Notes under the pieces: model-generated
Databases searched by the model: none
Told to the model about the DNA's origin: nothing
Seen by the model: only the letters and a program-made list of their open reading frames with translations
Translations under genes and position numbers: made by a program
Assembly: GCA_027923505.1 (NCBI GenBank)
Contig: BROI01000001.1
Coordinates: forward strand, 2,604,001-2,668,000
Direction of reading: 5' to 3'
DNA length: 64,000 nucleotides
Origin: Mayamaea pseudoterrestris
Lineage: Eukaryota
Shown: piece by piece, positions 1 through 31,537 of the stretch
Layout of the letters: each line of letters starts with the position of its first letter
How positions within the stretch are numbered: position 1 is the stretch's first letter

Positions 1-3000
1 GGCGACCTCAGGAATATCGGAAGATAGTACGAGCGCTTTTGAAGCTGTTTCAAGAGCGGATGTGAGCGGAACAGGGTCAGCGACTTTGCTCGTTCTCGCG
101 AAACGATGACCATATGATGCGGCAAGTAGGACGCTTCCGACTGGTCCTAGAAGGTATTCCGTCGACCGTAAATCTTCAGCTGGGGGTAAGGCTACTCTTT
201 TGTCAGCCAGAGCGCGATGAATGACGGTCGTTGCCATTGTTTTGGAAGCATTAGCCGTTTCGCTGAGGAGAATTGTATTCCAATCCTTACCCAGATCTGA
301 TCCGGGACGACAACATTGTGCGATTGTATCAAAGCTTTTCTCGACGAAAGAGTATCGGTCATCTTGGCTCGTTTGGTCACGTCTTCTATGCAATAGACGA
401 AACAGGAATAAGTTTGTGAAGATTGTTAGATACAGACGCGACGCCGCAGGTTGACTTACTCTGTTGGAGTTGGCATGTACAGTGTGCCGTACATTAATCG
501 CAATTTCGGCATGGCAGCATTTAAAACTTGATCTGTCTGAAGTAGATTCAGTTTGAGCCACTCGCGGGCGTACTGGAACTGCACCGAAACATTATCGTTA
601 TTAGCAACAACAGCATTTGCTTCTTCCAGGGCAGCCAGCAGCGCCTCCTTCCGACGAGTCGCTGCATCAATGACAGCAAGCAGTCCAACGAAAGCTTCGG
701 TTTCAGCTACACGACGGACAGCTTCCACTTTAGTATCTAGGCCTGTATTGTCCATGTTAGGCTTCTTTCCTGATGTAGGGCTTGGATATGGATCGAAGAC
801 CAACGACTCTTGCATCTCTATTCGTCGCTCGATCGGCGGCAAGCGAAGTGCATCATTGATCGTGCCTTTGACGCTACCACAAAAGGACATAGTGGGTGTA
901 CCAAGCCGGCGACTGCGCGAAAGAAGGTTGGCCGGGCCTCCATGACTGGCGACGTCATAATCTGCACAAATTTCGCTTCCAAACTCCTTCCTATCGTACA
1001 AAACAAGATAGGAGAATGCTCTTGTCTCATGTGTCAATACCGTACCTCGAAGAATGATATCATGCTTGGCGCTGTATACGCTGACAGTTGTGCCGAATGG
1101 AATAGGTGCTGGGATATCGAAATCAACGCTCGCCAAGGCCAACTTCATGGCGTTGTGTTGTACAAGTCTCACTCTTGCCCTGTATTTTCGTAGCCCTTCC
1201 AGCTGGGACTCAACAAAGCGACGACTGAAACGTCGAATATTCTTTTTGACTCGTCGGCGTATCACTCTCCACTCGGATGTCGTCAGCTTCACGTCCGGGC
1301 TCAACCCTAGGCGAGCAACCTCTTCCCGTATCTCATTCCGACTGAACCTGTTCGGAATAATCACAACAATTAGATATCAAAGCGCTGGCTACCAAAGCAA
1401 AGATTTGAAGCACCTACCATTCTCGATCAATATCGCTGTAAAAGAATTCACGGGACGCAAAAGCTCGAGTGGGTCCTTTTCTTAATGAGCGCACCAGCCT
1501 CATACAAAGCGCGGCATATGTTTTGTCAGAGTGACGCTGCCGCGGCGGATTTAGAGCTGATGAGTACGTTCTATTGATGGTCTCCCAACGAGGAAGACGA
1601 AATTCAATACCAGCAGCTTTTATCGCAGGAGGAATCTTGGCCAAGACCATGCTGTGGTATAGCTCTTTTGTTTCTGACCCGTCAAAAGCACTTGCGCTAA
1701 TGGAGAGATTGCGAGTGCGTCTTCTCAAATGCCGTTTCAAGCATAAATCCTTAGCGGTAACTCGTTTCATTGGCACTTTTGAGGCTTGTTTACCAGCATC
1801 CCGCAAGCTTATACCTCCCATCGACCCATTTGCCTGTGAGAAGGAATGGCTAGTGAGTATGGCATACGCGTACAAGTACAAACATATACCGAGTACGTTG
1901 CACGACTTACCATATCCATCGTTCCATCATGTACTGAACCATTAACAACAAGCCGCCCAATTCGAATTACTTTGGATTTCAAAAAAGAGAGCCCATTGGG
2001 TAGGGTTTCTCGAAATGGAATTTTAGCAATCAGTATTTTGTTCGCAGCGGGAGTATGCATAGCATTGCTCGTCACCGGCCTTGGCTTTTTGGCAACCTCC
2101 TCATCGGGATTAGAGGATTCCGATAATTCACGCTTGCGCTTAATGTTAACGTTGACCTTTTCAAACTTTCCAATCTCGTCTTCAACGTCATCTAACGCTT
2201 CCACCAAAAGGTGAATCCCCTTGTCGCGACGCTGGTTCTTTTGTTGCTGGGTCGTCCGGCGAGTTTTGATGGCCCGATCACCCTTACCGATTCCATTCAA
2301 ACCCTCTCGCAAATATGATTCAGGCTTGCTGCGATGCAATCCAGCAGCCCGGCGTATCCAACCGAGCGTACGAGGATCGAGCTCATAGTCCGTTTCTTTC
2401 TTGAGATTCGCAACAATATCCTTCATGTAGGACTGGCCAATGGCAATCTCTTCCTCCTCGGTCAAGAGATCATTAAACAATGACGTGTCACTCTCGTCCG
2501 ACTGGCCGAGAAGGTTAAAATGTTGTTCAGTCTGGCGATCGGCCGCACGATTCATTCGAACCATGAACGCGGTAATCTCCTCGTCATTCAAATAGCTCTT
2601 TGGCCCGTTGTCCTTCAAGTAGGCCAGGACGATACGCATCGTCTCCTCGTCCAAATCATTAGGAGCTTTGCGCAACTTTTTAGACATATTATTGTTTCGC
2701 ATGTCCTTGTGGTGAATAGTAATCTCTTTGACTGGACTCCCAAAAAGATTACGATGGTCCGCCTTATCGCCATCCTCGAATATGGATCGTTTCGTCATTG
2801 TACTAGTCAGTTCTTTCGTAGTATTTCGTTTTATGATAGGAGGAGATCTATATGATTGAACATTTGACTCTTTTGTTTCATTTTCTTTGCCAGTTTTAGT
2901 TATTACCGGCTGAGCGAGTGAATTAAACTCATTCGTATCGGTACTAGTAGCTAGCTCATTCTCAGTGGAAACCCTAGCTGCTGTTAACGTACCGTCCAAA

Positions 3001-3170
3001 TTCTTTATTGACTCATCATTTTTCGTCACCAAAGTTACATTTCCATTGTGCAATTCATCTTTTGCAAAGGCATTGGATGCTGCGGGCGCTTGTTTGTGAG
3101 TCGATTCGTGGCCATTTCCTACCTTGTCACTTGACGGATGTCGCTCAATTGAATGTTCAACTACGCCCAT
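1..3170 (-). CDS. LIN9: LIN-9/ALWAYS EARLY-like DIRP-domain protein (DREAM/MuvB); 3' end runs off the window. Exons approx. 3170-1911, 1833-1418, 1347-459, 385-<1
   Basis: 'REFFYSDIDREW|FSRN' and 'KLTTSEWRVIRRRVKKNIRRFSRRFVESQLEGLRKYR' match the DIRP domain, followed by a Tudor-like segment. GT-AG introns join the ORF pieces in phase, and the last exon is open to base 1. Confidence 0.75.
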
Positions 3171-3522
3171 TCTACTAAACAATCAGAGAATGAGCAGTAA
3201 ACGGAAAAGAGGTGAAGATATTGATCAATCGATTCGGTTTCTTGCTGCTTGGTCCTTCAATCTGTGTTTGCCACCAACCTGCCTCGAAACCGCGCTGAGC
3301 CGGGCCGGCGCGCGTCTTCTAGCTTCGGCGGTGACGTCAAGTATGGCTGCAAGAGTAAGTACTCTGAATCCTACAGTAACACTGAAATGTCCATCGTACC
3401 GGCACTGATAAGTTTTTTCGTTTCGATCGCTGCGACCATGACCAAGAGTTTGACGACGCAACGTTCATTGCAACAGACAGAAATACTTTGAAAATCTCTC
3501 ATAGTTATCAAGCACTGCAATC

Positions 3523-5269
3523 ATGGGTGTTTTAGAAAAGATCAAGGAGATTGAGGATGAAATGGTGCGTCATTCTCCCTTTGCGTTGACTTTGTCCTGG
3601 TTGAGCAACGACGGTCGTCGGACGTCTAGCTCTGCCTTGAAGCATTGTCGTTTTTCACAGGATTATATTAGCTTTGACTTCTAAACTGGTCAACTCGAAT
3701 TTACATCTTTTCCACAGGCCCGGACTCAAAAGAACAAGGCCACCAACTACCATCTCGGAACGTTAAAGGCCAAGCTCGCCAAGCTTCGAAGTGAGCTCTT
3801 TCTGGAGGAATCGGGAGGAGGCGGCTCCGGCGCGGGAGAAGGGTTTGCAGTTGCTCGGAATGGAGACGCTCGAGTGGCATTGATTGGATTTCCGGTACGT
3901 TGTTCCTGCTTGAATAGCTGTGTTGATAGCACAGACCGAGCTGATCTCTCATCACTGTCTCGTTCTTGTTGCAGTCGGTCGGCAAGAGTAGCTTATTGGG
4001 GAATTTAACTGCCACTGAATCAGAGGCGGCCAACTATGAGTTCACAACACTTACATGGTACGTATTGTTCCTGGTCGGTTAGTGCACTCGCTACTTGTTA
4101 CATGTAAACTGACCACTTATCCTTGTGCTTTCACATCACCAGTATACCAGGCGTTTTGAACTACAAGGGAAGCAAGATACAGGTTCTCGATCTACCCGGA
4201 ATTATTGAAGGAGCAGCCCACGGCGCTGGCAGAGGAAAGGAGGTAATTGCGGTGGCACGATCCGCGGATGCTATACTGATTGTATTGGACGCAGGAAAGG
4301 AAGGCTTGTCAAAGCATCGCGAAATTCTGGAGCGAGAGTTGGAGACGGTTGGCATTCGACTGAATCAACGCAAGCCAGATGTAACGCTGACCAAGCGAAA
4401 GACGGGTGGCGGTGTAAAATTTGCATCGACAGTTCCACAAACGCTTCTCGGACCCGATCCAGAAAAGGTTGTTTACCAGATATTGAAAGAGTACAAGATA
4501 TCTTCAGCGGACGTTTTAGCTCGGGAAGGTATGTGTCCATTGCGCACTGACACAATTGGCGGAGAATATGATGCAGCCTAAACTCACACAATATTTCATT
4601 TGATGCAGAAATTACGGTGGACCAGCTTGTTGATGTTGTCCAAGGAAACCGGGAATACAAGCCATGTTTATATCTTTACAATAAGGCAAGTTTAGAGTGA
4701 GCGACAGGGTCTCGCTCGCGTGTGTGTTCACAACATCACTCGCTTACGATATGCCACGCTTTCATCTACAGATTGACATGGTTACGATTGAAGAGGTTGA
4801 TCAGCTGGCTCGCATGCCGCACTCCATTGTCGGTAGTGTACAGGAACGCTTGAACATTGCTGGTCCGCTCGAGGATGATTTGGTCAAGCAGAAAATGTGG
4901 GAGTACCTTGGCTTGACTCGAATCTACACCAAGCGAAAGGGTGCATCGCCCGATCTCGACGAGCCTGTCATCCTTTCGGATTTGAGACGAGGGACTCATG
5001 TCAAGAGTCTATGCGCTAACATATCTTCGCAAATGCTGCGAGATTTTAACTATGCTCTTGTCTGGGGTACCTCGGCAAAGCACTCGCCGCAGCGATGTGG
5101 CTTGAATCACGATTTAGATGATGAAGACGTGGTCCAAGTTGTTACCAAGACGATTAAACAACAGCAATTGACCAAGGGCTACGGTGACCTTGCCCAGCTT
5201 GCCGCTGATAAGCATGCCAAGAAGCGTTTGGACGCCAAGAAGCAAAAACAAAAGAGGCTGCGAGGGTGA
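3523..5269 (+). CDS. DRG2: Developmentally regulated GTP-binding protein (DRG/RBG, OBG family). Exons 3523-3564, 3718-3894, 3975-4057, 4143-4528, 4609-4685, 4772-5269
   Basis: [29 protein letters not shown]1 [29 protein letters not shown] and a C-terminal TGS domain. The DRG1 vs DRG2 assignment is tentative. Confidence 0.92.
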
Positions 5270-5592
5270 GCTGACACAATTTTCAGCAATCCATGCCAGC
5301 GTCTTCAAAATATATCGTCTAGTATATTGTAATGAGTCTATATCTGTCGCTTCAGCTGTATACTTATATTAGTCAACAGCGATATCATTGTCCGATGCCA
5401 ACTCCTAACCATTACAAGTACACTACAGTACTATAGAGTAGGCAGTTGCATGGTAGCTACTCATCGCACAGTCACTCGAAGGAACTTCCATCTTGGCGCG
5501 CCGCGGCCATGAAGACTTGTGCCGTTTCTGTCACACTTTTCACTCGTCCTTGCTGCTTGCGCATGAGGCACCAAGTACAAATAAAAGCGTGC

Positions 5593-7050
5593 ATGATCTT
5601 ATTGGCCTCTGCTTGTCTTCGATCCATTTGCTCCTTTCCACAAGCACGACTTGTCATCAATCCGTTCATGGGATCATCCTCTCCACTTCGAGCATCTTCC
5701 CCGGCTGCTGCTGCGACGAAACTAGAGACTCCCCAGAAGCGAAAGCGATCAAATGATGCAACTCCCGCTATTGTCACTCCTGGACCAGCTATTGTTGGCA
5801 TAACGTCACGAGCCATTGGGCATATCAACCCAACGAGCCAATTCCAATGCCTTGGCGTTCCTCCCAACGAATTGCGGCCGAGTCGGACGCTAACAACGGG
5901 ACAGTGCTTTCACTGGACTGCTGTTTCGTCCGATGAGGTAGCGGACAATGCTACTACAGCCAAAGCTTCTGCGTGGGGAACTCATGATGCGACGGAATGG
6001 ATTGGAACACTTCGCCATCAGGGTGAATCTTTGGTGCTGGTGATTCGAGAAACGCCAACGGCGACACTCTATCGACCATTGACGCAAACTGATCTGAACG
6101 TTACAGCGCTGCTGCATGACTACTTTCAGCTGAATGAAAGTATTTCGTCGCTGTATCAAGAATGGTCGGAGCAATGTCCTCGTCTCAAAATGATAGCCGA
6201 GTGCCTTCCAGGTGTACGCATTGTCAACCAGGATCCCTTTGAATGTCTCATTAGCTTTATTTGCAGCAGCAATAACAACATTCCACGCATAACTAAAATG
6301 CTTTCAGCAATTCGAAAAGAGTTTGGAAGTCCTCTGTTGACCATTGGCGATCAAGTCTACTACTCGTTTCCTTCGCTGGCGGCGCTGCAGCGGAATGCGA
6401 CGGAGCAGCGCCTTCGAGAGCTTGGACTTGGCTACAGAGCCAAGTATATCATGGAGACTGTTCGCATTCTTACTGAATTGGGAGGGGAGCCATATCTGCA
6501 CGATTTACGCTTGATTCGCGACCCCTTGATTGTTCAAGAAAAGTTGACGCAGTTTAGTGGCGTTGGCCGCAAGGTTGCCGACTGCGTGGCGCTCTTTTCC
6601 TTGCAGCAAGACACTGCCATACCAGTCGACGTTCATGTATGGAACATTGCGCGACGTGACTATGATACGGATGAACTGCTACAAAGCGTCAAGAGCATTA
6701 CACCAAGTGTTTACAAGAGCGTTGGTGATTTGTTCCGAAACCGATTTACGAACAAGTGCGGATGGGCTCATTCACTCTTGTTTGTGGTAAGTCTACTCAA
6801 AACATTGCGACCATGCAATTGTAGCGGAACGTTAACACGTCTTATTCCATCTATTGTTTTGTGCAGGCTGAACTGCCAAGCTTTCGAGCCGTTCTGCCAC
6901 AGGATGTTGTCAAAGAAATGGATATTGTAAGCACTAGTTTGTGTATGCCAATTTCTGTCATCGTAACGTGTTGTGAGTCTCACAATTTGTCATGTCGTAC
7001 ATTGGAAACAGTTTCGTGCAGAAGAAAAGGCACGAAAGAAGGGCGCCTAA
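5593..7050 (+). CDS. OGG1: 8-oxoguanine DNA glycosylase. Exons ~5593-6786, 6867-6926, 7012-7050; start codon uncertain
   Basis: TLTTGQCFHW, QDPFECLISFICSSNNNIPRI, LRELGLGYRAKY, HhH-GPD GVGRKVADCVALF...PVDVHV, and GWAHSLLFV|AEL. Confidence 0.93.
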
Positions 7051-7110
7051 CCCATCAGCGATGCGCTATCCTTTGCCACTAAAAATATAGTTCGTTCTTA
7101 CTATACACAT

Positions 7111-8193
7111 TTACCTCCTTTGTTCATTCATTATAGAAGAGATGGTACTACAATCAGCTGGAGTGCTGGCTCCCTTGATTTTTACGCACGCCGTGCCAGC
7201 GGCACATCCACGGAATAGTCCTTCTTCAACGGCAGCACGAGGCCACGACGCATCATGCAACATTCGATTCTCCACTTTCCAGGCCCAAATGCCTTCCAAA
7301 AAGCCGGCAGTGAAGGCATCGCCAGCACCAGTTGGATCAATCACCTGAACATGCACCGAATGTTTCAGTTCCGCCAGTACCTCGCCGTCGCGGAATGTGA
7401 TTGCTCCATTCGCGCCGCGCGTCACGACAAACATGGTGTCGCGGCTCAGCGATTGAAAATGCTTGACGATAGCATCCATGTCATCACCGATCGCGTCATC
7501 GCGACTCTGCTCTCTCAACCCACGTTCCATGATTCGTTGCGCCTCGAGCAAATTAAGTATCAAAAAGTCGAGACACGATAGCAATTGATCAATGCCGCCA
7601 CTCCATGCGCCACTGGCATCATGCTGTGGCACCAAACTCATGCAAGTAATCTTTCGGTCACTATGCCGCTCTGAACGAACGTGTTTCAGCATTTGCTTTA
7701 GCTTGCCGTTCCAAAAGTGCGGCATGTTGTAGTAGCCAGCCACGTGAAGATGGACTGGTTTCGGGGAGTCAATCATTTGCTGCACTTCAACATGTTCCGG
7801 CGAAAAGTCGGCGACACATCCGCGATGCGTTAAAAAGGATCGTTCCTGCTTGGAAACAATGGCAAGGCAATGCCCTGTTGCGGCGATGCTATCTGATGGT
7901 TGACAGTTATTCAAGTAGAATCCATGCTGGTCGGCATGACGCAAAAGCAGCTGTCCGTAGTCGTCATTTGGATTCAATGCTGTATGCAGTAAAACTGTGG
8001 ATGTTGTTGGAGAATCACAGCTCCGCCCGACGAGCAGAGCTTGCAGATGCGTCGCAGTGTTCACGCCCGAGCCGCCAGCCAAGGCGTTGACAGGATCCGT
8101 CAGCTCCGCGTCGCCTCCTGGTTCAGGAAGAGAATCCTTAAGAATGCAAACGAGATCGACAAAGGCGTCGCCGACAATGTGAAAGGATGTCAT
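7111..8193 (-). CDS. pfkB-family carbohydrate kinase
   Basis: N-terminal GGSGVNTA motif and C-terminal DPTGAGDAFTAG signature. Confidence 0.9.
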   Translation of the reverse strand: MTSFHIVGDAFVDLVCILKDSLPEPGGDAELTDPVNALAGGSGVNTATHLQALLVGRSCDSPTTSTVLLHTALNPNDDYGQLLLRHADQHGFYLNNCQPSDSIAATGHCLAIVSKQERSFLTHRGCVADFSPEHVEVQQMIDSPKPVHLHVAGYYNMPHFWNGKLKQMLKHVRSERHSDRKITCMSLVPQHDASGAWSGGIDQLLSCLDFLILNLLEAQRIMERGLREQSRDDAIGDDMDAIVKHFQSLSRDTMFVVTRGANGAITFRDGEVLAELKHSVHVQVIDPTGAGDAFTAGFLEGIWAWKVENRMLHDASWPRAAVEEGLFRGCAAGTACVKIKGASTPADCSTISSIMNEQRR

Positions 8194-8813
8194 GCAGCAT
8201 GCAGATGATTGTGCTCACTGTCAATGATGATTGGCTATTGGCAATGAGCAGCGACGACGGATACTTCTCGTGATCAGTTATGGTTCTAGTGAATATCGAT
8301 CGACGGTCAAGTAAATTATAAAGGCGCGGTTGTGTCGCCAAGAATAGGTATAGACATCAAACCGCAGTACCTTACTTGTGCAGCGCTACCGTAGATTGAT
8401 GATGATGTTGCTGCTGCTTTCTCGTTTTGTCACCGAAGCATGTCGTCGCACACCGGTTTTCGGTGTACCGGACCGGTACGAGTACCGGTATGATGCTAAT
8501 CGCCAAAAGATGCTGCCTCCAACAAGCAATTACCGGTATATTCTGTACCGTCACGCTACTACTACTGGTGCAAGGTAACAATGTACTGAGTATGCTAGAC
8601 CAATACGACGAAGAAGAAACTTATACTTGTCGTAGTTTACAGTTAGTTTAAATACCGGTAGAATACTTTGCGCAAGATGCAGTTCCCCATCCTCAACGAT
8701 CAATAGGAGTATAGTGCGGAGAAAGTGCTTTCGATCGGCTGGCGGATCGGCGGATAACATATCATTAAGGCCAAAAAGAAGCGACATGGAAAGTCATTGG
8801 AGAAATGGTATTC

Positions 8814-10118
8814 CTACGTTGAGCCATCGTCATCGCTTTTCTTTCGCAGCCCCCTCTTTTCCGAACCGTCATCAGTAACGGCCTGGTCGTCACCCTCGCC
8901 TTCGTCATTGTCATTCTCCTTGTCTTCAGAACTATTGTCAGCTGCCTCTTTGTCGTCTTCACTTGCGTCCTCAACCATCTCGTTTACCTCGGCCTCGTCA
9001 TCCTCGTCCTCGGTTATCTCAGCCTTGTCATCCTCGTCCTCAACTACTTCCTTCAAAGCACCTTCCTTCTTATCTGTCTCAATCGTCCTTTTGGAATATC
9101 CAAACATGAAATCGTTTTCGAAGCGCTGGTGCATCAACTCCATCGTCTTGGCGCTCAAATGCTTGGTTGTCAGCTGCGCCTCGTCTCTCGACGCGGCTCC
9201 AAGCGCATTCATCTTTTTCAGTGTAAGCTTGTCAAGTCCAAAGGCAGACATGAGTTCCGTAAACGTGTCGGCCACGTTTTCTAACGTCAACACAAAATCA
9301 ACGTAGCGGACTTGGTTGGGGCCGACAATGAATTCGTACTGCGGCGTAAAGTGGCCATTGTCACTGAGATACTGCAGTGCGGGATGAACAGTCTTCTTCT
9401 GCTGCAGCTGTTGCTCGAACAGTTCATCGTCGCCGCCGTGAGCAGCTTTTGGCTCAAGTTTCCGCTGCAACCACTTGTTCATGTACTTTTCCTCGTGTAA
9501 CTTTTGTCGCTTGCACTGATCGGGTCGCCAGTCGAATACTTTGAGCGTGCAAATGTAGTAAAATTCGCTCACCATGCGATCATATGGCTCTCGCACCACG
9601 GCAAAAGTTTCCGCATTTTGGTAGGGATCAATGTTGCAGGCTGGAAAGAGGAATCGTGGCAAGTGCCAATAGCCAACGTGCGTTGGCCAGTCCATGGTGT
9701 TTTCAGGGTAGCGACAAACGTCGCGCTTGGGAGTATGTCGAAACAAGCAGCTTCCCCAAGGAATATGGTGTGCACCTGCAGCGTTCTCGGTAGCTGTGCC
9801 GGCAGTCTTTGGTATATGAAAGAATTTTAGCGATCGATCGAGTGATTTGAATGATTGCACGTAGGCTAGTGCTTGGTACGTCTCTTCCTGTATTCGTCGC
9901 GAGTCTGATATTGGCAATCCATTGCCTTGAGCACTATCTTTCATCTTTCGTTCAATTTCTAGTATTGCGGCATCCGCCGTTCTCACGTAGAGTCGTTCAA
10001 TGTGAAATGCATAGAGCAAGTAAAGCAAGGCGAAAAGAATGGCGCCACAACCGATTATGACACGGTAGAATTGTCGAGTTTCAGCTTTCTTCAAACTCGG
10101 AGCTTTTATTGCAACCAT
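8814..10118 (-). CDS. Type II membrane (Golgi) sulfotransferase, Sulfotransfer_2 family, with acidic C-terminal tail
   Basis: N-terminal TM helix, 5'-PSB loop FFHIPKTAGT and 3'-PB motif VVREPYDRMVSEFYY. Confidence 0.85.
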   Translation of the reverse strand: MVAIKAPSLKKAETRQFYRVIIGCGAILFALLYLLYAFHIERLYVRTADAAILEIERKMKDSAQGNGLPISDSRRIQEETYQALAYVQSFKSLDRSLKFFHIPKTAGTATENAAGAHHIPWGSCLFRHTPKRDVCRYPENTMDWPTHVGYWHLPRFLFPACNIDPYQNAETFAVVREPYDRMVSEFYYICTLKVFDWRPDQCKRQKLHEEKYMNKWLQRKLEPKAAHGGDDELFEQQLQQKKTVHPALQYLSDNGHFTPQYEFIVGPNQVRYVDFVLTLENVADTFTELMSAFGLDKLTLKKMNALGAASRDEAQLTTKHLSAKTMELMHQRFENDFMFGYSKRTIETDKKEGALKEVVEDEDDKAEITEDEDDEAEVNEMVEDASEDDKEAADNSSEDKENDNDEGEGDDQAVTDDGSEKRGLRKKSDDDGST

Positions 10119-10372
10119 TTGTAATTTACGTAATCACACTGGCTTTCTATTCCAAGAGAAGAGCAAATACAATAGAGGATTGCAGCAGTGCGTGCAGTAA
10201 CTGCATGCTCGTCATGGTCGTTCTTTTTTTGTGCTACAGTGTCGTACCGTTACTCGTCAACGGTCAAAGATCGTGACGTCACAAAAGTCGCATGCGACAT
10301 GCGTTCGGCTCGATCGTTGAATTTGACCATGGCCGTCAAAGGCATCATCGCACAACCTTTGAAACGAAAGGC

Positions 10373-13300
10373 ATGGACATTCAAGCCATTCTCGCTGCAT
10401 CCGACTCTTCAGATGAAGGAGATTTAGTTGGCGCTGGACGAATCAGTAGTCGCTACTCAAATATAGCCGCTACAAATATGGGCGCCGTTGACATTGAGCA
10501 ACTCCTTCGCGACGAGGATGACGAGGACGACGAGGATGGTTCTGATGATCTCATTGTACCGCGCTATAGCAGTAATCATGGGAAACGGCTTGGAGCATCA
10601 TCCTTGTCCAAGTATGCGAACTTTAGTTCGACGGGAAGTGACGTTACTTCTTGTTCGCATAGTCCGGACGACTGGGCTGTGCTGCAAGCCATTCTGCAGG
10701 AGGGCGATGACGATGAGGACTATGACGAGTCGCGTCGAGTAGGATCTGGATACAAGGATCTATACCAACGAGTAGATGAGGCGTGGATGGATGATTCAAA
10801 AAATAGTGATGACATGGCTATCGTGAGTTCTCGCCGAACGACCACCTCGGTCGACGCGATTTTGCTCGCATCGGATGATGAGTCGGACGATGATGTTGAC
10901 AATCAACTGCGTTTCGCTGACAACTCCTTAGTAAGAAAACAAATGGAATGGGAACAAGACAGGTTACTAAATGACGGCACATCTCATCAGTCAATGAAGC
11001 TGGATACGAGGAGTCCAGATCGAGTTGATGAAAACAATCGCGGCAAGCCCCCACTCATTACGCCGACTAACGGTGGTACGGCGCTAATCTCGCACCAGGA
11101 ACTAGAGACAAAAGGCTCTTCGCCAAAGGAAGCAACTAATTCAGCTCCGTCTGGCCCGAATAAAGACGAAATGTACTCGCGTACAGCAGCTCCAGTCGCT
11201 AATCCCAATTTACCTCGCGAGACAAAGGATGTACCTGTCGATTCATCCAAAACCCGACATCTATATCCAACACCAGCAACATCCCTTTCATCTATTAGTG
11301 CCGCAGAGTCTTTTGAGGAAGAATCGGAGCGAGCCTTGGCGCATGCTTATGCAACGGAGCGAAAACTGCTCAAGTCTGGCCATCGCGAAATTGTATCGCC
11401 GCTCTCGGTCAAAAGAAGACTGCGACCCAAGGTGGAACTGAGCGCACGTGGAAGTACAAAAAACAAGCGATCAAATACTTCAATGTTTGGAACAGAACGT
11501 CCATTGTTGACGAATAACCTGCGCACTGCTTCACGGTATAACTTTTCTGGTGTAACGGAAAATAAGCGACTGGCGACCATGTCGGAAAGCCTCGTATCGC
11601 ATGCAAACGAAAGTAGCAAGGTTGTATGCGGCTTGCCCACGGCAATGGCTTTGAACTCTAAATTCATTGCCGTCGGAACACAAAAGGGAATTATTTTGCT
11701 GTACGACTTGTTTGAGCAGCTGCGTCAACGACTCGGTGATGGACATGTTGACGATACATTCAACATTAACAAGGCGGGAGCGATCACAAGCCTTGATCTG
11801 AATTTCAACGGCGATCTTATTTGCGCCGGTTACTCGTCTGGTGTTCTTGTTCTCTGGGACAGCATCAGAGGCGAGCCATTGAAAAGTGTGTCAGACGCGC
11901 ATCCATCGCCCCTTACTTCCATACGTTTCATGAGTGAACTTAAGCTGGTCACTGTCGATGCTAGTGGCATTGTGAATAAGCTCACCTTTACCAGGAACAT
12001 GATATGGTTGACGTATTCTTTGGAAACAGAATGCTTACTGGATGGAACAGCGGGGCAGATTCTTGCCATGAACGTCCTACGACCATTTTCGACCGTCAAT
12101 CCCAATGTTCGAGCGGAAGCGCTTGCGCCGGTTCTAGGAAAACTTACGTTAATAGCTTTATCTTCCGAGCGCAGCTCATTTGTGGTAGCAGTGGAACCTT
12201 CTGTCAACGTCCTGCATCGTTGGGCGCGTCCACCTGAGGGAAATATTGTCGTGGTCGACAAATCGATTGGAAATGCCGGCGAGCAAAACTGTCTTCCATG
12301 TTTGGCATGGGGTTGGGCGCTAATCTCCGGGGGCCAAAATGTGGTAACACCTATATTAGCCAGAGCGTGGGGTTGCTGTCTTCAGCTTTTAGCTGCAAAC
12401 TTTCCGACGGTTGACGATGCTGAACCGCAGAGCAGCAATGATCATGATATCCACTGGCCAGCATTTGGAGTTCACGAAGAAATTGATACTGTTTCTTCCG
12501 TGGTGGCCTTGCAGTGGCTTGATTCTCGCTCTCTCGTGTACCTTACTCTTACGAAAGAGTTCACTCTCATCGACACTGTCATGATGACATTGCTTGAGCG
12601 AATCGACTTCAGTGCGGTTAAGCTGGTTTACGCTGAGTTTACGCTAAGCCGCAAAGTTGTCTCTGATGAAGATGACAATACCAGTTTGTTGAGATGCACA
12701 ACCTTTCAAAACAGTATTCGAAGCAGCGACGATCGCATTGTGGTGCTTTGCTGTGACGAAGTTAGATGCGTTTCCATTGTCGGTGCCACACGCCGTGTTG
12801 CTTCGCTCGAGGAAGACGGAGAATGGCTCGAGGCACTGGCGCTGGCGTTGGACCACTACGAAAGCGCAATCATGAGTCAGGAAGATCGAAAACGTGGTCC
12901 TCTAGGAAGAAAGGATTTATCCCATCAATTTTACGGAGCGAGGAACGACGAAGAAGAATGGCTCGCCAAGTTGCTTGTTCGGTATGTTAACCTTGCCGTC
13001 GACAATGCTCCTGTTTCTTCCCCGGAACCTACTCGTAAGAGTCTGCATGCATCTCGCGGATATAACTCGAACAATTACCTTGCGCAGAGTCATTTTCAGA
13101 TGCTTGCAGGAGTCGTCTTGGAATACTGCGTCACGACGAGGCGGCTTGATTTGCTCTTCGGACCAATTTTTCATCGATTCGAGGCTGCTGGCCACATTTC
13201 AATCTTTCTTGATGTGCTAGAACCATATGTTCTTAACGACAAGCTCACGTATGTTGCCCCGGAAGCCATGTCACATTTTGTACAGCATTGCCGAGCGTCG

Positions 13301-25901: not shown

Positions 25902-26062
25902 CGTTGCACTCGGTCGTTCTTGACGAATAAGGAGCCGCTTAGATTGCTCTAGGTTCGTGCAGCGGTCCAAGCAATAGTTTAAATCAATAGATTGTATATA
26001 ACTGATTAAATATGATCAGTCTTGGTGGCTATGTTAGGAGTCCAGCGGCAAGCGCGCCATGG

Positions 26063-26273
26063 TGTTGAGCATGGATGAGAACCCAAACCGAAGCGGCAGC
26101 GGTGACGTCACGAAGACGGTCACATTTAAGTAAGCGCGGTAAGCGGCAACCGAAGGAGTGGATCGAGGACGATCACTTCTTGGAGAAAATAAGTAAAGTG
26201 GTTTTATTGACTCTGTTCTGCTTAATCATTAGTGTCGCTTCAAGGGCGCGCAAGATATATTCTAGATCCAACA
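26063..26273 (+). repeat. 5' LTR (211 bp)
   Basis: Identical by eye to 31075-31285; TGTTG...CAACA inverted ends. Confidence 0.97.
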
Positions 26274-26287
26274 TTTTCTCCAAGAAG
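26274..26287 (+). promoter_or_regulatory. Primer-binding-site position, self-complementary to the LTR (non-tRNA PBS)
   Basis: TTTTCTCCAAGAAG directly follows the LTR's terminal CA, has no TGG start, and is the reverse complement of LTR 26176-26189. Confidence 0.7.
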
Positions 26288-26300
26288 CGAGTGAAAAGAC

Positions 26301-29300
26301 ATGTCTTCGACGAGCAATACTCCGACGACAGGAGCGGCGTCGAGCGGTGGAGGTGCACCTCCCGCTCCGCCAGCAAGCGAAGGAAACCGACGCAACCGTC
26401 ATTATCGTCGTGGGAATCGTGCTGGGAATCGTTCCGGGAATCAAGGCAATGGTAACAGACTCAACGGACCGAGTCGTGCGCCGAGTGGAAATTTCCAAGG
26501 AAGCGAGCCGACGCTCGCTGGATTCATCTACGACTATAACGGTTCGCGCGATCCCGATGGATTCATCCGTACGACGAACGAGATCATCACTTTCGTCGGG
26601 CGCTCCTACAAGAAATATACCAAGGAGCTGCTCAAGGGCATGCGCAACGTGGAACTGGAGATTCCTGACGAGCCTGCACGTCCAACGAAGGATGCCGACA
26701 CGACGGACTCGGACTGGTCCATAATGCTCGAGGAATACAAGGCCGACAAGAAAGAGCATGTCGAGCGCGTGCGTGTATACTCCGACTTCCTCGCTGGTCT
26801 CTACGCCGTGTTGCATGGACAATGCACGGAGCGTATGAAGGATCGTGTCAAGTCGCACGCCAAGTTCCGAGACGCCGAGGAGGACACGGACGGAATTAAG
26901 TTGCTGGCGATTATCAAGGAGATCTCGCATACGTACGAAGGGCGCTGCAAACTTGTGGATCAAGTCGTGGACATTCAAGCTGAGTTGTTCGGACGTACTC
27001 AAGGAGCGCGCGAAAGCCTGCAGAAATATTACGAAAGCATGGTCACGCTGGCAGACGTGGCGAAGGCGGTTGGCGTCACGATGCACAACGAGATTGTGGC
27101 GTTGAACATTGCCAAGGATGACAATCGTAACAAGGCGAACAAGGAGGATATCAAGGCCGCCGAAGAGCTCGAGCTTGCGATGCTTTTCGTGCGTGGCGCA
27201 ACGGGCGAATACGCTGGGTATTGCAAGCACTTGCGCAACTGCTACCTCGACGGGCACGACAACTTCCCGTTGACGATCCACGATGCATACAACATCATGC
27301 AGCGTCGTGAGCATGCGGATGGAGAAGCCACGTTGCCAACGAACGAGGGCGTGGCGTTTCACACGACTGGTACAGCGCGTGACCCTCCCAGATGCTGGAC
27401 CTGTCAACAGGTTGGTCATGTGCAGCGAGACTGTCCTACGAGAACGGAGTCTACGGAGAGTGCGCCGGCTGCAGAGGCTAGTGGGGCGCAGCACTTCACG
27501 CTGGGTAGCGAGGAAGAAAGCGATGACGACGATGAGGTCGGATACATGTTCGCGCAGCCGCCGAAGGTGAACATCTCGAAGAAGGCTGTGCTCTTGGACA
27601 ATCAGTCGACAGTGGATCTGTTCTGCAACGCCAAGATGCTGACGAACATTCGCCCGGTGCCAACGTGGATGGTGACTGGTGCAACGCTGGTACAGTAAGG
27701 ACGAACATGATGGGCGACCTGGAGGGCTATGGTCCGGTGTGGTGGTATCCGCAGGGACTGGCGAACATTTTGAGTTTGGCGCAAGTCCGCAAGAAGTTTA
27801 CCGTGGAGTATCTCATGCACGGCGTGGATCGTCCAATGTTCGTTGTGGAGAAGCCGGATGGTAAGCAGCGAGAGTTTGTCGAGACTGACTCTGGGCTGTA
27901 TGTTTGCGAGAGCTTTTCGAAGGGCAAGCGCAGCGATGTCAAGGATGGAGTGGCGATGTTGACTACGGTAGACGATAACCGTACTAACTACACCAATGAT
28001 GACTATTTACGCGCTGTTAGAGCTAGGGAACTGCAAATCAAAATTGGACGGCCAAGCCTCAAGGATTACCTGCGCATCGTTACTAGCAATCAGTTGCCGA
28101 ACTGTCCTGTGACGAAGGCCGACATCCTGGCTGCTGAGCACATCTTTGGACCAGATGTTGGCTCGTTAAAGGAAAGACGACGCGTCGCGCGTCGCATCTG
28201 GTGAAGCCTGCGATTGTTGAGCAGCTTCCACCGGCTATCATGAGTCGCTATCGAGACGTTACTCTTTGTGCTGACATCATGTATATCAACAAAGTCCCTA
28301 TGTTGGTGACGTTCTCCCGCAGCATTCGTTTTGCTACGGTTGAGGTGATTCAAAACCGTACGCTTCCGGTTATGTTGAAGGCAATCGAGTCTGTGTTGAA
28401 GATTTACGCACGCGGTGGGTTCCGTGTCGTCGCGGCTCTGATGGATGGGGAGTTCGCTCCAATGCTTGGCGCGTTGGCTGATCTCGGAGTGGCGCTCAAT
28501 GCGACATCTGAGGATGAACACGTTGGCGAAATTGAACGTTTTATCCGTGTCGTGAAAGAACGGGTGCGCGCGACATACAACACGTTGCCATTTAAGCACG
28601 TGCCGGCACGCTTGGTTATCGAAATGACGAAGTCTGCCGTGTTTTGGTGGAATGCGTTTCCGAACGAGCGTGGCATTTCGAAGGATCTCAGTCCACGCAC
28701 TATTGTGACTGGTCAGACAGTTGACTTTAATCGGCATTGCAAGTATGAATTTGGTCAGTATGTGCAAACGCATGAGTCGCACAGCAATGACATGCAGGCG
28801 CGCACGATCGGTGCGCTGGCTCTGCGCCCGACTGGTAATGTGCAGGGTGGGTTTTATTTCTTCAGTTTGTCTTCGGGCAAAGTTCTGAATCGTGGGCACG
28901 CTACGCCTTTGCCCATGCCTGATGATGTCATTGAGCGCGTGCATCGTCTCGCTCGTCAACAGAAGGCCAATCCGGGCATCGTGTTCATGGACCGCCACCG
29001 TGTTGCGGAGGCTGCTGAGCCAGTCATGTGGCACGAAGATGACGCCGAGGATGATGATGACTCTGATTATGATGACGACGCTTCTCGCGGTGACGACGAC
29101 TCTGCCGGCGGAAGCGAAGGAGTGAATGCGACCGATGACGACGACGACGACGACGATGGTGCTGACGGCGCAACGAAGGAGTGCCGAACGACGAGGATGG
29201 TGAGGCCATTGACGGCGAACTTGACGACGCGCCAGCCGTGGATGATGGCGAAATTGAAGGAGTGCCCGATGAAGGCGAAATTGAAGGAGTGCCAGCTGCT

Positions 29301-31145
29301 GCAGACGAAGAGGATTTCGATGCGCGCTATGGCCCACGCACTGGTCGGTATGGCCTGCGTGCGCGCAAACCTCGCTCGTTCGCTCATTTGTTCACGCTCG
29401 ACGCTGCAGAGGAAGTGTCGGAGCCACTCGTCACGGCACAGATGAATATGCGACAAGGTTTAAAGGCTTTTGGCGATGCTGGAGTGGAGGCAGTGCGCAA
29501 GGAAATGCAGCAGCTACACGACAGGCACGTCATGAAGGCAGTCCCCCAATGCACTCTGACTCCGCAGCAGCGCAAGGACGCTCTGGCGTATTTGATGTTT
29601 CTCAAGCGCAAGAGATGCGGGACTGTGAAGGGACGCGGATGCGCGGATGGACGCAAGCAACGAGCATACACTGCAAAGGAAGACGCAGCATCTCCAACGA
29701 TAGCGACAGAGGCCATCTTTCTGACAGCTATCATTGACGCTATGGAAGGGCGCGAGGTTGCTGTGGTTGATGTACCGGGTGCTTTCATGCAAGCGGAAAT
29801 GGATGAGTTGGTGCACGTTCGTTTCACTGGGAAGATGGTGGAGCTACTGTTGGAAATTGATCGCGAGATGTACGAGCCTTGCGTCACAATGGAGAATGGC
29901 GAGAAAGTCATGTATGTTGAATTACTCATGGCGCTTTATGGTACGCTTCGAGCAGCGCGACTATTCTGGGAGAAGTTGTCCGCAAAATTGCTTGAGTGGG
30001 GCTTCGAGAAGAACCCGTACGATCCGTGTGTGTGCAACAAGATTGTCAATGGGAAGCAAATCACCGTGGGATGGCACGTGGACGATTTGAAGATTTCGCA
30101 CGTCGACGTGAGCGTAGTGGATGAGTTCATCGCGCAGATGGATGAGGAGTTTGGCAAGGAGACTCCAATGAATAAGTCACGCGGAAAAGTGCACGACTAC
30201 CTCGGCATGGTATTGGACTATACTAAGCCTGGAGAAGTAGCAATCAACATGGTTGACTATGTGAAGAACATCCTGCATCATGCGCCAGACGACATGGATG
30301 GAACGGCAGCTACTCCGGCAGCCAGTCACTTGTTTCAGATATCGGAAAATCCTGTCATGTTGAGCGAAGCGAAGAAGCAGATTTTTGTGACGATTGTGAT
30401 GCAGTGTCTGTATCTGAGTCAGCGAGCGCGACCGGATATTCGCACAGCGATTTCTTTCTTGAGCACGAGGCTGCAGCAGCCTGACGAAGACGACTATAAG
30501 AAGGCTGCAAGAGTGATTAAATATTTACGCGGAAGCGTGGACATGGTGTTGACGCTGAAGGCGGACCAGTCCGGGATAGTCCAGTGGTGGGTGGATGCGT
30601 CGTACGCGGTGCACCCAGACATGAAGGGTCACACTGGTGGAACAATGACACTTGGCCAAGGATCAGTGTACAGTACGTCGGCTAAACAGAAGTTGGTAAC
30701 AAGAAGCTCGACGGAGAGCGAAGTTGTGGGAGTTCATGATGTGCTACCGCAGTTGCTGTGGACAGGATATTTTCTGAAGGCGCAAGGTTTCGGGGTCAAA
30801 GACACGAAATTGTATCAAGACAATATGAGTTCAATGCTGTTGGAAAAGAATGGCAGAAGCTCAAGTACAAAGCGCACGCGACACATGAATGTTCGGTACT
30901 TCTTTGTGAAAGATCGCGTGGCAGCTGGTGAAGTCAACATTGAGCATTGTCCGACCGGAGACATGGTCGCGGATTTCTTCACGAAACCATTGCAGGGAGC
31001 CCAGTTTGGCAAGCTCCGCAACCTGGTTATGAATCTGGCCTCGAGCAGTAAGTACTACTCGGCCCAAAGGAGTGTGTTGAGCATGGATGAGAACCCAAAC
31101 CGAAGCGGCAGCGGTGACGTCACGAAGACGGTCACATTTAAGTAA
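26301..31145 (+). CDS. Gag-Pol polyprotein, split by three -1 frame changes (~27678, ~28171, ~29173)
   Basis: CCHC knuckle CWTCQQVGHVQRDC; protease LLDNQST; integrase (CADIMY...MDGEF...EHVGEIERFIR); RT (VDVPGAF, ALYG, WHVDD); RNase H (WVDASY, SSTESE, YQDN, RTRHMNVRYFFVKD, ADFFTKPL). Confidence 0.93.
29241..29294 (+). repeat. 27-bp tandem duplication in the IN-RT linker (DDGEIEGVP/DEGEIEGVP)
   Basis: gatgatggcgaaattgaaggagtgccc followed by gatgaaggcgaaattgaaggagtgcca. Confidence 0.85.
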
Positions 31146-31285
31146 GCGCGGTAAGCGGCAACCGAAGGAGTGGATCGAGGACGATCACTTCTTGGAGAAA
31201 ATAAGTAAAGTGGTTTTATTGACTCTGTTCTGCTTAATCATTAGTGTCGCTTCAAGGGCGCGCAAGATATATTCTAGATCCAACA
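31075..31285 (+). repeat. 3' LTR (211 bp), preceded by short purine-rich AAAGGAGTG (PPT position)
   Basis: Identical to the 5' LTR and followed by the CATGG TSD. Confidence 0.97.
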
Positions 31286-31537
31286 CATGGCCACGCGAAA
31301 ATCGGCACGGATCATTCAGATAAGGCTTGGGCTAGTAAGTGACGCTGCGACTTCTAATACTCTTGGCGTTCCAAAATAAAAAACCATTTACTAGAAGCAG
31401 CGTAGATCTTTCCACGGCAGACGCTTGAGAGTATCACGATGAGGATGCCTGCGGCGACCACGAGAACCACCATGCGAATCACGGTGCGGAACGACTTGCA
31501 GAATCGTTGCTCGTCACCACTTGACTCGTTATCAAGA

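Follow-up and report, generated by a model that had tools for sequence, protein, structure and literature searches.

The 64,000-nucleotide stretch of Mayamaea pseudoterrestris DNA analysed here (GenBank assembly GCA_027923505.1, contig BROI01000001.1, positions 2,604,001 to 2,668,000 of the forward strand; hereafter the window) contains an LTR retrotransposon, the features of which are collected in Table 1. The sole long direct repeat in the 64 kb joins 26062–26273 to 31074–31285 at 100% identity, and trimming it to TG...CA ends gives two LTRs of 211 nt each, which are identical, as an earlier reading of the letters (the sequence-only reading) had described them. The TG...CA ends and the 5-bp CATGG target-site duplication are those expected of Ty1/copia (Pseudoviridae) LTRs. 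The pol reading frame crosses the polypurine tract and then runs through 71 nt of the 3' LTR (31066–31145). In relatives of the element, the equivalent junction, ACAGGAGTG followed directly by TGTTG, lies in the same place as the polypurine tract and LTR start of the window and encodes the conserved C-terminal HRSVL, so that coding constrains both the tract and the start of the LTR. The LTR also carries TGACGTCA, a perfect palindrome corresponding to a bZIP/CRE-type site and present again in the 3' LTR copy; any function assigned to it would be conjectural.

Table 1. Features of the retrotransposon, in window coordinates (position 1 is the first letter of the window).
Feature	Position	Strand	Basis or remark
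Target-site duplication CATGG, left copy	26058–26062	+	Same 5 bases after the 3' LTR
5' LTR	26063–26273	+	211 nt, TGTTG...CAACA; 100% identical direct repeat
Palindrome TGACGTCA	26103–26110	+	Motif scan; putative U3, ~70 nt upstream of the predicted start
Initiator-like TCACT	26173–26177	+	Fits the diatom TCAH(+1)W consensus, +1 = C26176
Putative self-primer, arm 1	26176–26190	+	Perfect complement of 26273–26287; first 15 nt of the predicted transcript
Putative primer-binding site, arm 2	26273–26287	+	Starts at the LTR terminal A; 26274–26287 lie beyond the LTR
gag ORF, CCHC zinc knuckle at about 27390–27437	26301–27698	+	ORF and motif
Presumed protease segment	27680–28171	+	tblastn collinearity with the gag–integrase interval of single-ORF relatives; frame differs from gag
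Integrase (catalytic core and C-terminal domain)	28165–29004	+	AlphaFold2 model and Foldseek
Reverse transcriptase and RNase H ORF; RVT_2 at about 29613–30284	29166–31145	+	Pfam
Polypurine tract AAAGGAGTG	31066–31074	+	Adjoins the 3' LTR; within the pol reading frame
3' LTR	31075–31285	+	211 nt; second arm 1 copy at 31188–31202
Target-site duplication CATGG, right copy	31286–31290	+	Read from the sequence

Coding potential on the plus strand is spread over four frames (26301–27698, 27536–28204, 28138–29445 and 29166–31145). The last of these matches Pfam RVT_2 (PF07727; E = 4.2e-17, 63 bits against a cut-off of 31.6), identifying a copia-type reverse transcriptase (RT). Pfam gave no integrase or protease family in the window or in two single-ORF relatives, and a PDB sequence-profile search returned matches of E = 0.4 or worse only. 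An AlphaFold2 model of 28165–29004, built from 16 homologous segments, has a mean pLDDT of 83.4, and in a Foldseek search of the PDB with this model all of the top matches listed were retroviral integrases (best E = 1e-8, probability 1.00). The predicted integrase fold thus lies upstream of the RVT_2 RT, and pol ends just past RNase H inside the 3' LTR; the copia domain order put forward in the sequence-only reading (integrase before RT) is thereby confirmed at the level of a structural model. The layout of Ty3/gypsy chromoviruses, with RT before integrase and a chromodomain, was not found, and no chromodomain was seen.

Metagenome relatives encode one continuous ORF of 1582–1705 codons, with which the window is collinear apart from frame changes near 27675–27683, near 28165–28171 and between about 29000 and 29180. 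Contigs from four public runs (two studies) carry, at full depth, an additional base after each of positions 27675 and 28167, and the size of the public-run contigs implies a third between 28606 and 29374, indicating that the common version of this family has a single gag-pol ORF. The copy in the window therefore contains either three one-base deletions, in which case it is a defective copy with identical LTRs, or three assembly errors. As written, with three frame breaks relative to its single-ORF relatives, it is not an intact autonomous element, and it may depend on proteins supplied by other copies. In the public runs X1–X3, several contigs join the LTR ends to different flanks (at 26060–26062, 26274 and 26281) and across the element the word depth exceeds that of the left flank by a factor of tens to thousands, so that the family either has many copies or is heavily represented. 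Contigs of one type, present in X2 and X3, agree with the LTR and with 8 nt of the putative primer-binding site (PBS) before they diverge.

The 5' LTR ends in CCAACA at 26273 and is followed by TTTTCTCCAAGAAG, which contains no TGG, as the sequence-only reading had noted; the full stretch between the LTR and the gag ATG at 26301 is TTTTCTCCAAGAAGCGAGTGAAAAGAC. No site of the tRNA-Met or half-tRNA-Met type is apparent, no TGG being present directly after the 5' LTR, and the 64-kb window contains no tRNA genes. What is found at this position is a sequence complementary to part of the LTR itself. An inverted-repeat search paired 26173–26190 with 26273–26290 at 17 of 18 positions (94%), the central 15 nt being perfect, exactly as first proposed. 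The 15-mer at 26273–26287 has perfect minus-strand matches in arm 1 and in its 3' LTR copy, whereas 0.14 matches with up to two mismatches would be expected in the window. In 20,000 shuffles of the LTR body, perfect helices anchored at the LTR end reached at most 11 nt, short of the observed 15. The minimum-energy fold of 26175–26300 contains the helix formed by the two arms; the overall energy of this fold is unremarkable (z = −1.88, with eight of 200 shuffles folding as well). Short inverted repeats are common, and this prior is the one point that speaks for a chance repeat or an assembly artefact. Against such an origin stand the shuffles, the presence of the pairing in both LTR copies and the public-run contigs that span the LTR and the LTR/PBS junction.

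A search for relatives with gag gave only five proteins (36–45% identity), and the RT was used as the query instead. With the RT ORF, 2,798 of the 7,998 candidates scored were homologues at E = 1e-10 or better; among the 120 matches listed, the sole one with a eukaryotic name came from the diatom Nitzschia sp. (63% identity). A 40-sequence RT alignment was then used to scan metagenome contigs and gave 607 pattern matches, of which 551 encode relatives; the best 80 of these 551 yielded 78 loci (numbered with the prefix L below), with RT identities of 43–71%. Searching these contigs blindly for perfect inverted repeats of 11 nt or longer turned up 60 matches in 325 kb, and most of the long ones share the geometry of the window: the first base of the 3' arm is the terminal A of ...CAACA or the base next to it on the 3' side, and the 5' arm lies 27–205 nt upstream of it, mostly 82–120 nt in the relatives and about 82 nt in the window. 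A segment inside the LTR that is complementary to the sequence at the LTR terminal CA occurs in 34 of the 78 RT-related loci, the junctions of the relatives having been located in part through the helix itself. After filtering for geometry, 31 loci and the window have a perfect helix of 12–17 nt. The three less regular cases are L011, with 13 Watson–Crick and two G–T pairs and with LTRs of its own that are only 92.9% alike; L025, with a 14-nt helix in which the site lies at the start of the contig and the arm was read in the 3' LTR; and L019, a decayed copy in which the helix has a 1-nt bulge.

No locus with an assessable junction was found to be without the pairing; L016, L042, L037 and L040 fall outside this assessment. 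L016 and L042 have an LTR end and a candidate site but an LTR cut by the end of the contig. A relaxed search at junction-type sites gave nothing in 22 of the 25 loci supplied to it. Inverted repeats reported for L034 and L068 proved to be chance matches inside coding sequence, and four presumed junctions (L012, L046, L069 and L073) are in fact 3' LTRs followed by DNA outside the element. The LTRs of these four carry segments resembling TCA plus the arm, and the arm of L046 is that of L001. All other loci are too short to be assessed.

Collapsing identical arms among these loci and the window left 30 distinct families. Pairs were counted in a script anchored on the junction, since a MAFFT alignment of the R-U5-PBS stretch had split arm 1 with gaps. 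Over 14 positions in 30 families, 415 of the 420 cells are Watson–Crick pairs, compared with 43.1% when the arms are re-paired across families, and each of the 14 positions shows two to four Watson–Crick pair types. RNAalifold, run on 12 of the 30 families, predicted the main helix alone, in which 11 of 15 pairs show compensatory double changes, and the minimum-energy folds of 28 relatives all contain the helix. Control sites chosen independently of the helix were supplied by a definition of the junction from motif plus ORF, which was too permissive for any other use because in-frame ATGs were counted. Among 598 such YNNAACA sites with at least 250 nt upstream, the best anchored helix is 8 nt or shorter in 573, and the other 25, with helices of 13–16 nt, are without exception LTR/PBS junctions. 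The sequence-only reading had made its proposal depend on conserved or covarying LTR–PBS pairing in related elements, and that is what the relatives show: a helix of 12–17 nt in the same place in 30 families, with different sequences. The recurrence of the pairing in 30 families, the compensatory changes found by RNAalifold and the shuffles together refute an origin by chance or by artefact.

Several of the relatives (L001, L018, L035, L066 and others) emerge from metagenome assembly as circularly permuted contigs of 5.1–6.5 kb, many of them about 5.1–5.5 kb, the ends of which overlap inside coding sequence. Such circularly collapsed contigs contain a single LTR followed directly by the site and gag; they are useful for reading LTR/PBS junctions and could be mistaken for circular genomes. 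In L075 (positions 2–10829), two tandem copies share one LTR; they repeat at an interval of about 5,358 nt and are 81–89% identical to each other.

The position of arm 1 within the LTR coincides with a predicted transcription start. TCAH(+1)W has been proposed as an initiator-like consensus in diatoms (Kadono et al., 2015; PMC4686930), and the same paper cites FCP genes in which transcription was mapped as starting from the Y of CAY(+1)A. In the window, TCA occupies 26173–26175, immediately 5' of arm 1, and W is T26177; H(+1) is then C26176, the first base of the perfect complement. The sequence-only reading had placed the start near 26175. The complement does begin right after TCA, as that placement implies, but the diatom consensus puts +1 at C26176 and not at A26175, a choice that rests on the metazoan reading YYA(+1)NWYY and differs by a single base. 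Under either assignment, the predicted RNA has its 5' end where the complement begins; pairing from the very start of the RNA is what defines self-priming of the Tf1 type. The same arrangement recurs in the relatives: YCAH(+1)W lies no more than one base from the start of the arm in 24 of the 30 families, and exactly there in 17, against a background of 71 in 6,396 positions (1.1%) in the same LTRs. At the four positions before the first base of the arm, the counts among 29 are C 18, T 18, C 19 and A 21.

At the other end of the helix, the last pair joins the arm 1 T to the LTR terminal A in 24 of the 30 families, and in the other six the pairing begins one base later. Either this terminal base is templated by the primer or the pair lies outside the functional duplex. 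No family of the 30 has a TGG within 8 nt of the LTR end. The putative site is A/T-rich and differs in sequence between all but a few closely related families, so that no single tRNA fits it. In some relatives (L027, L006 and L055), the gag ATG follows the site by 1–2 nt, leaving no room for a second primer site between the LTR and gag.

These observations also bear on whether the helix serves priming at all. It could instead be a structural RNA element that closes the R-U5 loop, with a role in packaging, dimerisation or translational control, while another primer, such as a tRNA fragment or a small RNA, acts at or beside the site; other retroelements are known to have long-range 5' pairings that serve functions besides priming. 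We consider this unlikely. In 34 of 34 loci the 3' arm lies exactly where a PBS is located, abutting the LTR terminal CA; the variable, A/T-rich and TGG-free site excludes a shared host primer; gag follows so closely in several relatives that a separate site has no space; and a 5' arm placed at an initiator-like motif is not something that a purely structural stem would require.

We therefore regard it as quite probable that this Ty1/copia-type element uses the 5' terminus of its own RNA to prime minus-strand DNA synthesis, as does Tf1 of Schizosaccharomyces pombe, a reading strongly supported by comparative sequence evidence. With regard to the start site, RNase H cleavage, the identity of the primer and priming in cis rather than by a second RNA, we infer the following course. 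Transcription would yield a capped RNA beginning inside the LTR, at the initiator-like TCA and the C that follows it (26173–26176; +1 being 26176 or else 26175), and the ~15 nt at the front of this RNA (26176–26190) would fold back over about 82 nt onto the site at 26273–26287. The RNase H of the element would cut after the paired segment, and the released 3'-OH would be extended through U5 and R to give minus-strand strong-stop DNA. From the general scheme of LTR replication, synthesis of the plus-strand strong-stop DNA would be expected to copy the primer, so that the site would be rewritten from the 5' end of the transcript in each cycle. Rewriting of this kind would keep the pairing near-perfect in young copies while its sequence drifts between families, and would confine blemishes to decayed copies such as L011 and L019.

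The primer could also act in trans, as LTR-derived RNA from the 5' end of a second packaged genome or as a short promoter-proximal LTR transcript. The sequence evidence fits cis and trans priming alike, arm 1 is present in both LTRs, and the family is multi-copy, with several different flanks at the LTR ends in public contigs. On the other hand, the Tf1 RNA pairs its own 5' end with its PBS in the structures described for it (PMC7175516, PMC10085805), the two arms are close together in the window and in its relatives, and minimum-energy folding of single molecules produces the helix. We judge priming in trans to be improbable, slightly more so than a purely structural helix.

Self-priming of this kind leads to a falsifiable prediction, namely a transcript starting at C26176 (or A26175) and a primer of 15 nt, and model diatoms can be transformed, which makes tests with compensatory mutations feasible. 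It also provides a diagnostic rule for annotation: the complement of the first LTR bases after TCA should be sought at the terminal CA. LTR-retrotransposon annotation that relies on complementarity to tRNAs will return 'no PBS' for these elements. More broadly, self-priming might be the shared ancestral mode of an abundant clade of copia elements in diatom-like hosts, independent of both the Tf1/sushi group and the plant TAR lineage, with a diatom-type initiator fixing the first base of the primer, the site being rewritten in each cycle and the last base of the LTR being templated by primer RNA in most families. We offer this wider scheme tentatively, its several parts taken together being somewhat less likely to hold than to fail.

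To our knowledge, experimental proof of self-priming exists only for Tf1-type gypsy elements. In Tf1, the PBS is paired with the first 11 nt of the transcript, which RNase H cleaves between nucleotides 11 and 12 (PMC7175516); the RNA adopts a 'pretzel' with two duplexes in addition to that of primer and PBS (PMC10085805). Self-priming is described as established for Tf1 and inferred for the Tf1/sushi chromoviruses (PMC7175516, PMC10085805), a group of Ty3/gypsy elements that includes Tf1 and Tf2 of S. pombe, Maggy, Skippy, Cft1, sushi and the plant Tcn1 clade. The present lineage resembles this group in lacking a tRNA-type site, in having after the LTR a sequence that complements an LTR segment at the predicted start, and in the family-specific nature of the pairing. 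It differs in superfamily, having an RVT_2 RT with the integrase upstream, in the length of the helix (12–17 nt, compared with 11 nt in Tf1) and in the use of the LTR terminal A for the last pair in most families. The 'pretzel' and RNase H cleavage belong to the description of Tf1, whereas the present lineage is known from sequence alone. With respect to extra duplexes of the Tf1 type, RNAalifold on 12 sequences retained the main helix only. Single-sequence folds of many relatives contain a small hairpin 2 nt after arm 1 (for example GGTTT...AAACC or AGTTT...AACT). The motif CTRGTTT directly after the arm is common to L001, L011, L014, L017, L050, L074 and others, and is absent from the window; as judged from the folded sequences, the CTRGTTT hairpin of the relatives may correspond to the U5-IR-type stem found in Tf1.

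Within the copia superfamily, the fungal GalEa elements are described as lacking a PBS and having a 'Conserved Hairpin Site' where it would otherwise be (Donnart et al., 2017; PMC5445492). They resemble the present lineage as copia elements that have a conserved structure where a tRNA-type site would be expected. The GalEa site is presented as a local palindrome followed by a hairpin, for which its authors report no complementary LTR sequence (PMC5445492), whereas the partner in the present lineage lies inside the LTR, upstream of the site. Diatom Ty1/copia-type elements have been classified as CoDi groups (Maumus et al., 2009; PMC2806351), and the nearest named protein of the present family also comes from a diatom; the main text of that paper contains neither 'tRNA' nor 'priming', and 'PBS' only as a buffer. 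A search of open-access full text found no paper describing self-priming in diatom-type copia elements.

The closest precedent is the plant Ty1/copia TAR lineage (Houba, Osr-1), for which self-priming was predicted by Neumann et al. (2019; PMC6317226), who cite an earlier proposal for Houba and Osr-1 (Capy, 2005). The view from which the sequence-only reading started, that copia elements are regarded as tRNA-primed, is consequently outdated, and the novelty for Ty1/copia is smaller than it claimed. In both cases elements of the copia superfamily are predicted from their sequences to self-prime; the hosts of TAR, which was compared here by its published description, are land plants, whereas the nearest named relative in the present case is from the diatom Nitzschia sp. 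The present elements thus form a new lineage for which the proposed mechanism is of a kind already known, and they are not the first case in copia. Self-priming in copia has so far been a sequence prediction in one plant lineage, to which a second is added here from a different eukaryotic supergroup, with comparative support that is unusually clean (30 families, with changes of pair type at every position of the helix). This suggests that doing without tRNA primers is a solution reached repeatedly, or else an ancient one.
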